From NCBI GenBank assembly GCA_963701095.1, contig OY969564.1, forward strand, positions 1,536,001 to 1,600,000: a stretch of 64,000 nt of DNA, given 5' to 3'. The position numbers and the translations under genes were made by a program. Source of the stretch: an uncultured Methanoregulaceae archaeon (GTDB lineage: Archaea > Halobacteriota > Methanomicrobia > Methanomicrobiales > Methanospirillaceae). Of this stretch, positions 12,352-17,100 are shown piece after piece (the stretch's first letter is position 1; the number at the start of each line of letters is the position of its first letter). The notes under the pieces were generated by a model that saw only the letters and a program-made list of their open reading frames with translations, was not told where the DNA came from and did not search any database.

Positions 12352-13155
12352 GTGGTCCAGAAAATTTCTGTGCTTTACGTCGATGATGAACCCGGCTTAT
12401 TGGAAATCGGCAAAATTTTTCTCGAAAAGAGCGGACAATTTTCTGTTGATATCGTTACCTCGGCTCCGGATGCACTGGCCATTCTTGCTACGAAGACCTA
12501 CGATGCCATTCTTTCCGATTACCAGATGCCCGAAATGGACGGCATTGAATTTTTAAAGAGTGTCAGGGCATCGGGAAACACTATTCCGTTTCTCATTTTA
12601 ACCGGAAGAGGACGTGAAGAGATAGTTATCCAGGCGTTAAACGAAGGAGCCAATTACTATATTCAGAAAGGAGGGAAACTGGTACCGCAGTTCACTGAAA
12701 TTGCACACCAGATCCGGCACGCAGTCCAGGAAAGATGGGCTGAATCTGACCTCCGCAATCTCGAACGTCGGGAATCTGATATCCTTGACTTTATGCAGGA
12801 ACCAACGTTTACAATCGATATATCCGGGCAGGTTACATCCTGGAATTGTGCTATCGAGAATCTTACCGGTGTTCCGGCAACGGAAATACTCGGGAAAGGG
12901 GATCATGAATACGCGATCCCTTTTTTTGAAAAACGGCTGCCGATCCTTATCGATCTTATCCTCTGGCCAAACATAACCGTGGCCGGTCGTTATGAACACA
13001 TTACCCGCGATGGAGATGTCCTGATCGCAGATACAATTCTAACTTCTCGAACTGGCTCAACGGTTATGCTTCACGAAAGGGCAGGTCCGTTGTATAACCG
13101 GGATGGTGAGATTGATGGTGCAATTGAATCTATCAAAGAAATTGTGAACCTCTGA
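12352..13155 (+). CDS. Response regulator receiver + PAS domain protein
   Basis: VLYVDDE, SDYQMPEMDG, LTGRG, YIQKG; PAS ending GAIESIK. Confidence 0.9.
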   Translation: MVQKISVLYVDDEPGLLEIGKIFLEKSGQFSVDIVTSAPDALAILATKTYDAILSDYQMPEMDGIEFLKSVRASGNTIPFLILTGRGREEIVIQALNEGANYYIQKGGKLVPQFTEIAHQIRHAVQERWAESDLRNLERRESDILDFMQEPTFTIDISGQVTSWNCAIENLTGVPATEILGKGDHEYAIPFFEKRLPILIDLILWPNITVAGRYEHITRDGDVLIADTILTSRTGSTVMLHERAGPLYNRDGEIDGAIESIKEIVNL

Positions 13156-13213: not shown

Positions 13214-13867
13214 TCAAATTCCCTTTCCTTTTTTCATAGACCCGTATATTTTGACAAAGACCGAAACGAGTGCGACAAGTGACACCGCAATAATCGCGTA
13301 CACGATGAACGTGAAGTTTGCCTGAACAATCGGGAGATTGCCTACAAAATAACCGGCGAGCAGGAAGACGCATGACCACATAACACCACCAAGGATATTG
13401 TATCCCAGGAACCAGGAATAGCGCATCTTCCCCACACCGGCGAGGAACGGTGCAAACGTCCTGATAAAGGGCATGAACCGGGCTATAACGATGGTAAAGC
13501 CGCCATATTTTTCAAAATACTGGTGTGTCTCCTCGAGATGCTCCTTTTTGACAAGCGAGTATTTCCATTCAAGTATTTTCATTTCGAAGGTATAGCCGAT
13601 CCAATAATTGAGAGTATCGCCAAGTACGCATGCAAGAATCAGACTGCCAAGCAGAACCCATATATTGAGCATCCCGGCCCCAGCAAGTGTTCCTGCAACA
13701 AACAACATGGAGTCACCCGGTAAATAGGGTGCAATCACCAAGCCCGTCTCGCAGAACAGAATAAGGAAAAGGATAACATACGTCCACAGCCCGTACTGCT
13801 GGAGAATCCCCGGGAGGTACTTATCAAAGTGCAGTACCAAGTCGATAAAGGTGAACGGAAGTACCAT
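13214..13867 (-). CDS. dedA: DedA/VTT family membrane protein
   Basis: FCETGL, LPGDSMLF, ARFMPFIRTFAPFLAG. Confidence 0.92.
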   Translation of the reverse strand: MVLPFTFIDLVLHFDKYLPGILQQYGLWTYVILFLILFCETGLVIAPYLPGDSMLFVAGTLAGAGMLNIWVLLGSLILACVLGDTLNYWIGYTFEMKILEWKYSLVKKEHLEETHQYFEKYGGFTIVIARFMPFIRTFAPFLAGVGKMRYSWFLGYNILGGVMWSCVFLLAGYFVGNLPIVQANFTFIVYAIIAVSLVALVSVFVKIYGSMKKGKGI

Positions 13868-13941
13868 CGTACATCATCATTGAACAGAGAGTGATAAATG
13901 AGTTGGGGCAGTACTGAAGGACACGAATAACCTAAAAAAAA

Positions 13942-14211
13942 TTAATCGCCCCGGATCTGGTGAATCCTCAGGAGCCCGGCACAAGATCTGCAAGTATAAT
14001 ATTCATCCTTCCAGCAGGTTTCACAGGCCCAGCGTCCGCAAAGCACACACTGCCGGAGCTCCGAGATCGGGTGCGGGGTATTGCAGAGATCGCACGTGAA
14101 TTGAGCGAAACTATGCGGGTCCTTTGCCGGGGGTTCCCCTTGCTTACGCATCACGGTGATCTCTTTTTTGAGATCACGGATACGATCTGAGGAACTTTTA
14201 TTTTTTGGCGT
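13942..14211 (-). CDS. Small zinc-finger protein; start uncertain
   Basis: CDLC..CVLCGRWACETCW..CRSC (8 Cys). Confidence 0.7.
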   Translation of the reverse strand, partial: TPKNKSSSDRIRDLKKEITVMRKQGEPPAKDPHSFAQFTCDLCNTPHPISELRQCVLCGRWACETCWKDEYYTCRSCAGLLRIHQIRGD

Positions 14212-14554
14212 TTCCTTTGCCGGCCAGTTCTTTTTCCAGAACGTCAAGGCGCGCCTCCAGCGATGAGAGCGTATTCTTCATCCCGGACTCGTAGTTCTTC
14301 AGTTCTGCAACCCGCGCCTCATCCTGTTCGAGCTCAGAACTGCGCTGATCCTGAAATTTCGCGAGTCGGGTCTTGGTGACAAGCTGCCAGTCTTCCACCA
14401 TGCTCTGGAACCTGCGGTCAAGGTACTCGTCTACCCGGCTCTCCACAGGACTCGTGATCGCAAGATCACCTTTTGCACCCTTGAAAAAATAATACACGAG
14501 GAACAGGAGGATACAAAGGACAATGACAAGGAAAATAAAAGTAAGAAAATCCAT
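14198..14554 (-). CDS. Membrane-anchored coiled-coil protein (paralogue 3)
   Basis: N-terminal TM; VDEYLDRRFQSMVEDWQLVT; heptad tail. Confidence 0.8.
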   Translation of the reverse strand: MDFLTFIFLVIVLCILLFLVYYFFKGAKGDLAITSPVESRVDEYLDRRFQSMVEDWQLVTKTRLAKFQDQRSSELEQDEARVAELKNYESGMKNTLSSLEARLDVLEKELAGKGNAKK

Positions 14555-14555
14555 A

Positions 14556-14778
14556 TCAGGCCCTCCCTTTCAGGCTTCCTGCACGCCGTTCCAGTTCAGT
14601 AAGTTTGTCCGCAGCTGCGTGTTCAAAGGCTTTTAACCGGGGAACCTCTTTTTCCAATGCCAGGAGCCGGTTGGTGAATTCTTCGAGATCAGACTTTCGT
14701 TGAGAGATCCCATTCCTCGACAATATATTTCATCCTGCGGTCCACGTAGGCATCCAGGTACGAGTCCATGCCAATCAT
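14556..14778 (-). CDS. Small coiled-coil protein (paralogue 2); absent from ORF track, one extra base at ~14693
   Basis: Manual translation MIGMDSYLDAYVDRRMKYIVEEWDLSTK(A)DLEEFTNRLLALEKE...GRA*; ATGA overlap with upstream gene. Confidence 0.75.
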
Positions 14779-15092
14779 GACGATCGCTCCATAGATGTGA
14801 TCAGGTCATCTAACCGTTTTGCTCGTGCCTCGATAACGGCTCTTCCTGCGTAAAGGCTGCTGATCTCGTCACTTACCCGCGATAGCCGGCTTTCGAGTTT
14901 TTCGAGATCGCTTTCTGTCACGAGATCCCATTCTTCAATGATTGCCGCAAAGTGCTGGTCGAAATATGCGTCCAGCGATTTATCGAGCGTCGGAACATGC
15001 GATTCGATTATCCCGGGTAGCGTCGCAAACGTGTCCCAGAACGAATCCCCTGTCATGTTCCGGGTCGGATTCGGGTTGATAACTGGGTACAT
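14775..15092 (-). CDS. Coiled-coil protein (paralogue 1)
   Basis: LDAYFDQHFAAIIEEWDLVTESDLEKLESRL. Confidence 0.8.
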   Translation of the reverse strand: MYPVINPNPTRNMTGDSFWDTFATLPGIIESHVPTLDKSLDAYFDQHFAAIIEEWDLVTESDLEKLESRLSRVSDEISSLYAGRAVIEARAKRLDDLITSMERSS

Positions 15093-15095
15093 CTG

Positions 15096-15524
15096 TTATT
15101 TCACCTTCTTTTCCTGTTCCTGGACGTTACCGAGGAGATAATCCAGTTTCTTTGATTTTACGATACTTTCTAGACGGGTCAGGCGCTTGTCAAGGAGGTT
15201 TTCCTTTGCAAAATTATCAGTTCCAATCGCGGTATTTTCGTCTTCCACCTGTTTTATTGCTGCGGTCTGCTCAGGTGAGAACCGGGTGAACGGGAACATC
15301 TTTGATGCTTCGTGCTGCTGGAGGAGTTTGAGCTTATCCCGTTCCAGTTCCAGTTCAATAGTCCGGTTAGTCGTTTTCATTATTCGTATCTCACGGATGA
15401 TGAAGTAGATTATGGCCAACACCATGATGATGATAATACCCATAATGGCGATATCAGGGGTAAAGGTTACCGGGACGGATGCATCTGCCATGTTAGTACC
15501 CGCCGCAGTTGTTGATTCTTTCAT
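15096..15524 (-). CDS. Single-pass membrane coiled-coil protein
   Basis: TM IAIMGIIIIMVLAIIYFII then charged helical region. Confidence 0.75.
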   Translation of the reverse strand: MKESTTAAGTNMADASVPVTFTPDIAIMGIIIIMVLAIIYFIIREIRIMKTTNRTIELELERDKLKLLQQHEASKMFPFTRFSPEQTAAIKQVEDENTAIGTDNFAKENLLDKRLTRLESIVKSKKLDYLLGNVQEQEKKVK

Positions 15525-15538
15525 CTCTACATCTCATA

Positions 15539-16048
15539 TCAGAGATCATCTCCTTTACCGGTCACATTTTTCACGGTTTTCTTTACTTCCTTGGCGGTCT
15601 TTGCAGCAGATTTTCCGATACGATCGGACGCTTTTTTTGTTTCCTTTTTCAACGATTCGGCCGCAGTTGCCGCTTCTTCTTTTACTTCATGGACGGTTTT
15701 TTTTGCCGTTTCGTCCAGTTTCTGTGCGCCTTCTGAAATCGAAGTGCTTGCTTCCGCAACTGCTTTCGATACTTTTTCTTTTAACGGGGGTGTTTTCCTG
15801 ACAAGTACCTCATCACCCTCATTTATATCGAGCGCTTTAATATCCTCGACACTGACACGGATCTGCCCTGAAGAAACCATAGTATCGGCAATTACCGTAA
15901 CGCCAACCGATTTTTTGGAAATCTCGTTGATCAGGTCAACGCGGTCTCCTTCAGCAACGCCGAGTTCCGGGAGATTTTCAGTATTAATGCGTATCCGGCC
16001 GTGACTGGGAAACGCCCGCTTCTTAACGGTTAAACGTACATCCGGCAT
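15539..16048 (-). CDS. CDC48/VAT N-terminal-like (double-psi barrel) domain + amphipathic K/A/E-rich tail
   Basis: GRIRIN..LGVAEGDRV and GQIRVS..LDINEGDEVLV duplicated GD-box pattern; no AAA domain. Confidence 0.7.
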   Translation of the reverse strand: MPDVRLTVKKRAFPSHGRIRINTENLPELGVAEGDRVDLINEISKKSVGVTVIADTMVSSGQIRVSVEDIKALDINEGDEVLVRKTPPLKEKVSKAVAEASTSISEGAQKLDETAKKTVHEVKEEAATAAESLKKETKKASDRIGKSAAKTAKEVKKTVKNVTGKGDDL

Positions 16049-16160
16049 AGATGAAAGAACAATGCTGATAAGGTATATATTTTCCTCAATTTTTCATTCT
16101 ACGCACAGTTATCAGCCTCAAGCGCCAATAGATTGGCAACAAATGGTAAGGTAATGTGTG

Positions 16161-17100
16161 ATGAAACACCAGTGCGATGAACCGGTTACCCAGATGCATA
16201 TCAGGCCGTCCATGACTGTCGGAGAATTGGTCAATGCCATGGGAAAAGCCGGGGCATACAACGGCGGCTCACTCTATCATGCAGCAGAAATTTATGAAAA
16301 AATGCTTCGGGATAGTGGCACGACAAAATTCTTTGGCCTGGCTGGCGCTATGGTCCCAGCCGGTATGGGTGGGATCGTCTCTGATCTTATAAGGGACGGT
16401 TATATCGATATCCTTGTCTCTACCGGGGCAAATCTTACGCACGATATTATCGAAGCTATTGGCTGCCGGCACTTCCACGGTTCAGCCTTTACAAGCGACA
16501 TCGAACTCCGGCACGATGAAATAAACCGTATCTACGATGTTTATCTTCCTAACGAAGCCTTCGAACATTTCGAGGTTTTCATGCAGGATGTTTTTGGTGA
16601 ACTTGAGCCTAATAGCACCATCTCCATTTCACGACTGCTGCGGCACATCGGTTCGCATCTGAAAACCGGTATTCTTGCAACGTCCGCACAAATGGAAATT
16701 CCGGTTTACTGCCCGGCGGTGCAGGATTCCATGGTCGGTCTGCAGTACCTGGCTCTTTTCTCAGACTACCAAGGTGACCGTTGACGCATTTGCTGATATG
16801 CCTGAGCTGCTTGACACCTGCTTTGCAACAAAGAAAGCCGGTGCTATTCTCGTCGGAGGAGGGGTTCCCAAAAATTTTATTTTGCAAAGCATGCTTATGA
16901 CTCCGAACGGTTTTGATTATGCAATCCAGCTGACGGGGGACCGGCCGGATCTTGGTGGCCTGTCAGGAGCAACGCTCGACGAAGCCCGATCGTGGGGCAA
17001 GATCACCGAAGAGGCTCGTGCCGTCACAGTGTATGGTGACGCCACGATCACCCTGCCGGTCCTTATCGCGGCCGTGATGGAGAGGTTATCCCATGCCTGA
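16161..17100 (+). CDS. dys: Deoxyhypusine synthase; frameshift ~16749
   Basis: LVSTGANLTHD, GGGVPKNF, GGLSGATLDEARSWGKI, GDATITLP. Confidence 0.92.

Follow-up and report, generated by a model that had tools for sequence, protein, structure and literature searches.

Zinc fingers of the Prok-RING_2 family (PF14445) have been catalogued since 2011. Burroughs, Iyer and Aravind reportedly defined the family in that year in Mol Biosyst, and their paper may already sketch the operon neighbourhood. A functional test of the family did not turn up in our literature search. One of its members is encoded by the last of six genes, here named g1 to g6, which occupy positions 13942-16048 on the minus strand of a 64,000-nucleotide stretch from an uncultured Methanoregulaceae archaeon, a methanogen of peat soil (assembly GCA_963701095.1, contig OY969564.1, positions 1,536,001 to 1,600,000). 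This whole stretch is called the window throughout. The g6 protein matches all 56 positions of the family model and has eight invariant cysteines, and the range of the family in our searches is that of the Methanomicrobiales genomes which hold the operon. Prok-RING_2, however, covers only one of the six genes; partners of the ubiquitin type do not recur in the clustered flanks of the operon, and the predicted fold of g6 is nearer to FYVE.

Also other parts of the operon have relatives among described proteins. The barrel of g1 is predicted to have the Nn double-psi fold of the N domains of p97, Cdc48 and VAT, but the protein lacks the ATPase and the Nc subdomain and continues instead into a helical tail or into such a tail plus a TrkA_C domain. 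The tail resembles the 11-residue-repeat helices of apolipophorin-III, apolipoprotein A-I, alpha-synuclein and late embryogenesis abundant (LEA)-type proteins and might bind lipids as they do, although its match to any curated family stays below the cut-off. The structural matches of g6 to FYVE fingers (endofin, RUFY, Hrs, EEA1 and the FYVE-like fingers of Rab effectors) cover its finger and its C-terminal helix. The cysteine spacing of g6, C-x2-C...C-x2-C-G-x3-C-x2-C...C-x2-C, is like the FYVE consensus; the basic motif with which genuine FYVE domains hold lipid head groups is missing from its sequence. As a working analogy only, the phage shock protein (Psp) system may be mentioned. It, too, combines small single-pass anchors that have cytoplasmic zippers with a peripheral protein that has an amphipathic helix, and all of these parts sit on the cytoplasmic side of the membrane. 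The operon differs from it by the absence of PspA homology, by a marginal likeness to PspB and by the additional barrel and zinc-finger modules.

An earlier note, made from the letters of the window alone, had recognised no described system of this composition. We likewise found no characterised match for the whole, yet g6 belongs to a described Pfam family. In our rating the operon falls outside all the kinds of system that have been characterised, with the reservation that the paper of 2011 may describe its neighbourhood. A literature search, outside of which the defining paper of Prok-RING_2 lay, retrieved no text on the operon, and the accessible parts of PMC11354881, PMC7159879, 10.1101/2024.02.06.579148 and 10.1101/2023.03.28.534520 contain none.

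What, then, could g1 to g6 be? On balance we lean, though not heavily, towards a cytoplasm-facing, membrane-anchored heteromeric coiled-coil scaffold that carries a barrel and a finger. The anchors would be g2 and g5, each passing the membrane once with the N-terminus outside, the C-terminus inside and a helical domain in the cytoplasm; g3 and g4, the soluble paralogues of g5, would join it to make up a coiled-coil stalk of different chains. This scaffold would carry two adaptor modules, neither of them enzymatic. One is g1, where a barrel like the N domain of Cdc48/VAT would be followed by a lysine-rich 11/3 amphipathic helix of the type with which alpha-synuclein, apolipophorin and LEA-type proteins lie on the surface of lipids, and in some genera by a terminal TrkA_C domain that may bind a ligand. 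The other is g6, presumably a FYVE/RING-like binuclear zinc finger. The whole would serve the membrane as a scaffold, structural or sensing, in surveillance, in protection from stress or in remodelling, rather than as an enzyme pathway, and Pfam searches detected an enzymatic domain in none of the six proteins. It is the strict gene order, the tight or overlapping junctions, the paralogy, the joint presence or loss, the two anchors and the tail resembling a lipid-bound helix that together point to such an assembly. Binding among the proteins, lipid binding by the tail of g1 and any physiological role are what we infer.

Gene order and distribution

In the window the six open reading frames (ORFs) each abut or overlap their neighbour: g1 (15539-16048, 169 residues), g2 (15096-15524, 142 residues), g3 (14775-15092, 105 residues), g4 (14556-14778, split in the window and 73 residues long after removal of a spurious base at 14693), g5 (14198-14554, 118 residues) and g6 (13942-14247, 101 residues), which starts with TTG and overlaps g5 by 50 nucleotides. 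Among 301 genomes sampled from the class, 137 have PF14445 matches, 132 of them above the cut-off. Regions of about 9 kb around such matches were fetched for 40 loci, which were picked for a wide coverage of genera and for the length of their contigs. All six genes stand in identical order and orientation in 39 of them, so the conservation among relatives on which the earlier note had counted was indeed found. In these 39 loci the median gaps from g1 to g6 are 15, 0, -4, -4 and -35 nucleotides. The fortieth genome (G196) has g6 alone on contig C104 (L079, 7839-8147) and g3 to g5, in order, on contig C71 (9411-10176); although kept on different contigs, these genes still co-occur. Its g6 adjoins a long ORF that by eye looks like a Y-family DNA polymerase.

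Clustering of the flanking ORFs yielded no family that is present in more than 12 of the 39 loci. Since the flanks are not conserved while the six genes are, the six travel as a module. In a sample of 401 genomes of the phylum, strong RING matches and the g5 family share one set of 31 genomes, the window's own included. Without the latter, the two coincide in 27/31 genomes of family f1 and in 3/9 of family f6. Three relatives that are 98-99% complete and RING-less are also without the g5 family. Beyond the Methanomicrobiales the sample of 401 contained just weak RING-like matches and one marginal g5 match. By family, PF14445 was found, among the 301 genomes of the class, in 116/154 genomes of f1, 13/33 of f6 and 2/11 of f4, in none of the 46 of f2 or the 11 of f5, and in 5/45 of f3, where all matches are weak. 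The full operon is found solely in Methanomicrobiales and is present or absent as a whole, nearly always in one copy per genome. Its holders stem from peat, wetland, soil and freshwater metagenomes.

Searching one genome per prokaryote species gave 147 relatives of g5. The 80 that were listed are named Methanoregula, Methanoregulaceae, Methanospirillum or Methanomicrobiales, the one exception being a "Methanobacteriota archaeon". The closest homologues of g1 are called "hypothetical protein [Methanoregula sp.]"; the distant representatives are nameless except for one "hypothetical protein [archaeon]". Viral contigs contained no relative of the operon proteins.

Weak PF14445 matches outside the order (E 5e-7 or weaker) were rejected as belonging to another system, as the four loci fetched had none of the other five genes. 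These loci (L075-L078, genus g80 of family f7) encode lone zinc-finger proteins of about 58-70 residues with E values from 5e-7 to 2e-4. The genes sit between that of a long repeat-rich protein and that of an enzyme of about 550 residues, and operon genes are not nearby.

The anchors and the coiled-coil paralogues

By profile comparison g3, g4 and g5 are true paralogues: hhalign aligns g3 with g4 at E 1.1e-15, g4 with g5 at 8.1e-15 and g3 with g5 at 1.3e-12, with probabilities of 97.8-98.6%. A short helix with the sequence D-x-Y-[LF]-D-R-R-[FM]...E-E-W is common to them, as are a turn, L-x-T, and a coiled coil built of heptads, the best heptad period being 3.46-3.48 for g3 and g4 (3.48 for g3). 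The g3 protein is soluble and has an N-terminal extension before its motif, D-x-Y-F-D...E-E-W-x-L-V-T, and the coiled coil; g4 is the minimal paralogue; g5 begins with a transmembrane segment (residues 3-21), which is followed by the motif P-x-E-S-R-x-D-E-Y-L-D-R-R-F and the coiled coil. The g2 protein has its transmembrane helix at residues 25-43, ahead of a helical domain.

A hydrophobic segment of 19 residues is present in 38/39 g2 and 39/39 g5 sequences and in none of g1, g3, g4 and g6. Lysine plus arginine is commoner after the segment than before it in all 39 g2 and all 39 g5 sequences. With this positive-inside bias the helical parts of both proteins should face the cytoplasm, the N-terminal anchors apart. 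A motif followed by heptads in three consecutive genes, and membrane anchors on one of these paralogues and on the 142-residue protein, had already been seen in the earlier note; the profiles and the orthologues agree. The g2 protein shares the architecture of g5, but its profile likeness is weak: hhalign gives 70% (E 3.9e-5) against g5, mostly driven by the anchor, and 3.9% against g4. It is a possible fourth paralogue.

Do the paralogues form a complex? The prediction for g3 (28-105), g5 (30-118) and g4 scores 0.77, a control in which g5 was replaced 0.65, so that it speaks neither for binding nor against it. The hetero-oligomeric, membrane-tethered coiled-coil complex that the earlier note had proposed is plausible from the conserved order, the tight or overlapping junctions, the paralogy and the co-occurrence. 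A sequence search of solved structures with the profiles of g3, g5 and g6 and with a long form of g1 led only to coiled coils of a designed or generic kind, to fingers of the TFIIE/PHD type with weak matches, to TrkA and to alpha-synuclein, and in the ESM Atlas g2 and g5 hit only their own unnamed archaeal clusters. DUF7607 (PF24580) was considered for g5, since 13/39 members match it, and was dismissed as coiled-coil noise: none of 301 genomes of the phylum holds a member above the cut-off.

The split of g4 is due to an extra base at 14693, which is an assembly error and not a mutation. When contigs of four public runs were laid on the window, those of X1, X2 and X3 each omitted one letter at this position, and the omission has the full depth of the spanning contig (10.8, 8.99 and 19.7, respectively); in run X5 the position is uncovered. 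As X1 is possibly the source sample and X1-X3 come from one study, the comparison checks the assembly and represents no independent population. In each of the 39 orthologues g4 is an unbroken ORF, which can be aligned from its start up to about 72-76 residues; two of them have a longer open frame upstream. Without base 14693 the frame reads ..STK-A-DLEEF.., exactly as had been guessed when the gene was first suspected to be hidden by a one-nucleotide error.

The barrel and the tail of g1

Residues 1-88 of g1 are modelled by AlphaFold2 as a double-psi beta-barrel, with a predicted local distance difference test (pLDDT) score of about 90. The best Foldseek matches are the N domains of p97, Cdc48 and VAT (E 4e-8, probability 1.00, root-mean-square deviation (rmsd) 1.1-1.3 A over 83 columns), at about 22% identity. 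Two GD-box half-repeats are visible in the sequence, and R11, G17, R18, R20, D55 and D69 are invariant. By sequence, CDC48_N (PF02359) scores 24.8 bits, which is under its cut-off of 35.1, and Molydop_binding scores 27.6 bits. A CDC48_N scan of the whole genome gave 25.5 bits for g1 and 90-94 bits for two other places, one of them in an 814-residue open frame. A second (Nc) N subdomain and an AAA+ ATPase are absent from the 169 residues of g1, where helical repeats follow residue 88. Judged by the model, the term "CDC48-N-like" is valid for the fold only. The earlier description of g1 as an ATPase-less CDC48-N-like barrel with an amphipathic tail is therefore correct as to the fold, the missing ATPase and the tail, and too generous as to the family, given the Pfam score and the missing Nc subdomain. 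The invariant arginines also raised the idea of an AbrB-like DNA-binding protein, which was abandoned; the matches to AbrB and MazE are marginal (E 0.012).

The tail, residues 89-165, consists of seven amphipathic repeats of 11 residues with lysine-rich flanks and small apolar residues. Its best period is 3.65 residues, and in 37 of 38 tails the periodicity exceeds that of shuffled sequences at z>3. The protein has an acidic C-terminus (..GKGDDL), and most orthologues have a short K/E-D/E-L end. In 9 of the 39 aligned sequences a further C-terminal stretch of about 70 residues is added. All four of the long forms tested match TrkA_C (PF02080) above the cut-off, with 27.1-38.3 bits against 27; in the g1 of the window, which has 169 residues, Pfam finds no TrkA_C.

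The zinc finger of g6

The match of g6 to PF14445 is strong: it spans positions 1-56 of 56 and scores 127.4 bits (E 2.3e-37), where 22.4 bits are the cut-off. The eight cysteines noticed in the window, C52, C55, C67, C70, C75, C78, C86 and C89, proved invariant in 40/40 sequences, and g6 is a putative binuclear zinc finger with eight cysteine ligands. The protein starts with a basic N-terminus and a helix, which are followed by the finger and a C-terminal helix. The upstream TTG is the real start, because the N-terminal extension is conserved in relatives. Longer fused forms are limited to one protein of 195 residues.

The AlphaFold2 model (pLDDT 81) had no Foldseek match at E<=1e-3. When it was compared with representative structures by VIA-align, the first 13 rows were FYVE-type or related Rab-effector zinc fingers with Z scores of 6.1-4.0, which are middling values, as a Z below 8 may reflect a common arrangement. 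Endofin is the best match (Z 6.1, rmsd 3.2 A, 64 aligned residues); RING and PHD fingers rank lower, with Z around 3. The Pfam FYVE model (PF01363) reaches 13.5 bits against a cut-off of 27.8. With such values g6 may be called a FYVE/RING-like binuclear finger, of one subclass or the other, and its model looks most like the FYVE type.

A two-gene core in Methanobacterium-type contigs

Searching 1.84 billion representatives with the g4 profile gave just 165 matches at E<=1e-3. They include the three paralogue groups and long repetitive coiled-coil proteins, the latter taken for noise. The profile also finds proteins of 145-205 residues that are built from an anchor, an insert rich in Gly, Ser, Lys and Glu, the motif and a coiled coil; the named relatives are all "hypothetical protein" of Methanobacterium species. 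This Methanobacterium-type family (A7) is homologous to g5 (hhalign 99%, E 5.2e-18). The g5-like gene has a g2 homologue directly upstream in each of the 31 Methanobacterium-type metagenome loci that measure 8 kb or more. The two-gene module thus resembles the operon in its g5-like anchor, motif and coiled coil and in its g2 homologue, but differs by the Gly/Ser-rich insert and by the absence, at E<=0.01, of a detectable g1 or g6 homologue; a further paralogue of g3, g4 or g5 likewise escaped detection in the 31 loci. As the pair is adjacent in 31/31 loci, the two anchors look like the ancestral core. To this old core the Methanomicrobiales would have added the paralogues of the g3/g4 type, the barrel-tail protein and the finger, a direction that we infer. 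Within the same set of loci (L166-L245), a gene for a 113-residue membrane protein lies 4-60 nucleotides after the pair in 16/31, and a divergent gene upstream of it in 29/31.

What might the assembly do?

Several findings weigh against the anchored scaffold as outlined above. In 18 of 68 genomes of its genus, including some that are 98-99% complete, the operon was not found, and thus it is dispensable. The tail of g1 has a poor model (pLDDT 41-50) and weak matches to ApoLp-III (E 8.3e-7, below the cut-off) and alpha-synuclein (E 0.014), and its 11-residue periodicity also fits a right-handed coiled coil. A tail function shared with Methanobacterium is unsupported, as the Gly/Ser-rich insert of the g5-like proteins has an 11-residue period at z>3 in just 6/26 cases. 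The structural likeness of g6 to FYVE fingers is of the middling degree already mentioned. In the RNA runs X18 and X20, finally, just 0.05 of the sampled words are present in each.

Of the specific forms that the scaffold could take, we favour a membrane-stress module of the Psp/LEA-like kind, though taken by itself it is rather unlikely. The anchored zippers of g2 and g5 would sense the membrane and hold or release g1, the 11/3 helix of which would coat a damaged or an acid- or osmotically stressed membrane; in some genera TrkA_C would provide control by a ligand. The amphipathic tail with its likeness to ApoLp-III and alpha-synuclein, the TrkA_C fusion of the long g1 forms and the wet or soil habitats of the holders are consistent with this idea. 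So are weak PspB matches on the g5 anchor in 4/39 members (best E 0.0017), but they are driven by the transmembrane segment and lie far under the cut-off. A membrane protein of the DUF308 (HdeD-type) family neighbours the operon in 12/39 loci, on either side, accompanied by a decarboxylase in 6/39 and a permease in 5/39, counts which stem from related genomes and therefore overstate their independence; in the window the downstream gene is a VTT/DedA-type gene instead. [quoted passage not shown] A wider proposal, in which we put still less trust, sees an undescribed archaeal membrane machine in the operon: a stalk of three paralogues and a second anchored coiled coil would present a FYVE-like finger, a Cdc48/VAT-N-like barrel and a lipid-surface helix, in a way that recalls the endosomal tether and sorting scaffolds of eukaryotes but would have evolved separately, with a core shared with the Methanobacteriales. 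A task in membrane quality control appears quite improbable to us. According to this proposal g6 would be a RING-type ligase or a recruiting finger and g1 a Cdc48-N-like binder of substrates or adaptors, which would cooperate with Cdc48/VAT and small modifiers like a primitive version of endoplasmic-reticulum-associated degradation. It can point to the Pfam family of g6, to the barrel being closest to p97/Cdc48 N domains, to the two strong CDC48_N matches elsewhere in the genome and to the membrane RING ligases of eukaryotes, which bind the N domain of p97. Not all prokaryotic RINGs, however, are said to be ubiquitin-related, according to the abstract of Burroughs, Iyer and Aravind. The g6 model is nearer to FYVE-type fingers than to RING E3 ligases, and its cysteine spacing is without the Cys-x-His pair of the RING consensus. 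In p97 the adaptor groove is formed by a second N subdomain, which g1 lacks. Among the clustered flanks, whose ORFs were scanned against Pfam in part and in which genes for E1, E2, Ubl, JAB and ATPases were not sought by name, no family recurs in more than 12 of the 39 loci, and the recurrent ones are DUF308, the decarboxylase and the permease.

A part in cell division or membrane remodelling is very improbable. PRC-barrel proteins act in archaeal division (10.1101/2023.03.28.534520), and eukaryotic ESCRT-0/I combines a FYVE finger with a three-chain coiled-coil stalk (10.1101/2024.02.06.579148). The three PRC matches of the genome, however, are 0.3-1.5 Mb away from the operon. A Vps4_C match is absent from the genome, while the control was positive in four genomes; for Snf7, the negative result comes with the weak control noted above. 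Moreover, many complete relatives in which the operon was not found must still divide. The patchiness within the genus and the flanks that differ between genera could also suggest a mobile or defence-type accessory module, a view to which we grant scarcely any probability. There is one copy per genome in nearly all cases, the viral contigs are devoid of relatives, and a nuclease, ATPase or other effector domain is not present in the six proteins. PADLOC and PHROG gave no convincing match, the best being the tail of ZorA (E 5e-5) on the low-complexity tail of g1. Least probable of all is that the proteins, in the manner of phasins or UbiK, are a coat of storage granules or lipid-soluble cofactors or an accessory factor for them. 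Granule coating had been suggested in the earlier note because of a likeness to UbiK and phasins, and it did not hold up. Phasin (PF05597) does match the motif-plus-zipper segment of 29/39 g3 (E<=0.1) and 7/38 g4 sequences, but all these matches are under the cut-off of 28.8 bits (15.1 bits for g3 of the window; E 9.4e-5 for the best g3 member), and the listed 25 families that g5 hits most often do not include it. UbiK/BMFP (PF04380) has no match at E<=1 to g3, g5 or either half of g4 in the window, nor does it appear in the lists of the 25 families hit most often by the alignments of g3, g4 and g5. In the one-contig genome, which is 86% complete, PhaC_N was not found, while the control was positive in Caulobacter; PhaE was searched there without a positive control. 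To our knowledge, Methanomicrobiales make neither polyhydroxyalkanoates nor ubiquinone.

Whatever its role, the operon touches on organisms of some importance. In peat, wetlands and digesters the Methanomicrobiales rank among the main producers of methane, and hardly anything is known of their cell biology. Here they have a six-protein, non-enzymatic module, probably of the membrane, which keeps a strict order in three or more groups of family rank, disappears as a unit and has no characterised counterpart in bacteria or archaea. Three kinds of domains that work at membranes in eukaryotes appear to be joined in it, namely a barrel of the Cdc48-N type, a finger of the FYVE/RING type and a lipid helix with a repeat of 11 residues. 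Because the module is without an ATPase and ubiquitin parts, the role of these domains before or apart from those systems becomes testable. Should the RING paper of 2011 already sketch the neighbourhood, the novelty would consist in the anatomy worked out here and not in a first sighting.

Transcription signals and neighbouring genes

On the minus strand, a TATA-like A/T-rich box (16074-16083) can be read about 30 nucleotides upstream of the ATG of g1. An A/T-rich 8-mer occurs at -40..-21 in 31/39 orthologous loci, against 18/39 in the control stretch -70..-51. The box may be the promoter of g1 to g6, and its distance from the ATG suggests a leaderless or nearly leaderless transcript. At the other end a T8 tract (13934-13941, minus strand) immediately follows the stop codon of g6 and is likely an archaeal terminator; 20/39 loci have a run of at least five T within 45 nucleotides of this stop. 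Together, g1 to g6 probably make up one tight transcription unit.

Beyond the T8 tract, 75 nucleotides downstream of g6, lies a gene for a membrane protein of the VTT/DedA family (PF09335, E 7.7e-21; 13214-13867, minus strand). It probably does not belong to the unit, because such a gene neighbours the operon in only 4/39 loci. Farther on, at 12352-13155 of the plus strand, an ORF of 267 residues appears by eye to start with a response-regulator receiver, which is followed by a PAS-type domain; a similar ORF (cluster 1) recurs close to the operon in five loci. The DUF308 neighbour belongs to several genera (loci L034-L037, L040, L043, L044, L047, L051, L058, L066 and L067). It is upstream of the operon in some of them and 137-279 nucleotides downstream in others. 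The decarboxylase beside it is of the Orn/Lys/Arg type and the permease one for amino acids, and the three neighbours possibly link the operon to acid stress.

The source genome is a single contig of 2.63 Mb with a marker completeness of 86%. On the far side of g1 in the window the deoxyhypusine synthase gene (16158-17100, plus strand) is split into two overlapping frames of 208 and 141 residues, which cover positions 1-182 and 177-287 of the Pfam DS model. This is probably another single-base assembly error, and the two split genes, g4 and this one, fit an assembly rich in indel errors. Elsewhere in the genome (G000:C1:878865-879110) one of the strong CDC48_N matches, with 90.7 bits, lies in an open frame of just 211 residues. 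Either the protein is short and consists of an N domain, or another assembly indel has interrupted a Cdc48 gene here.

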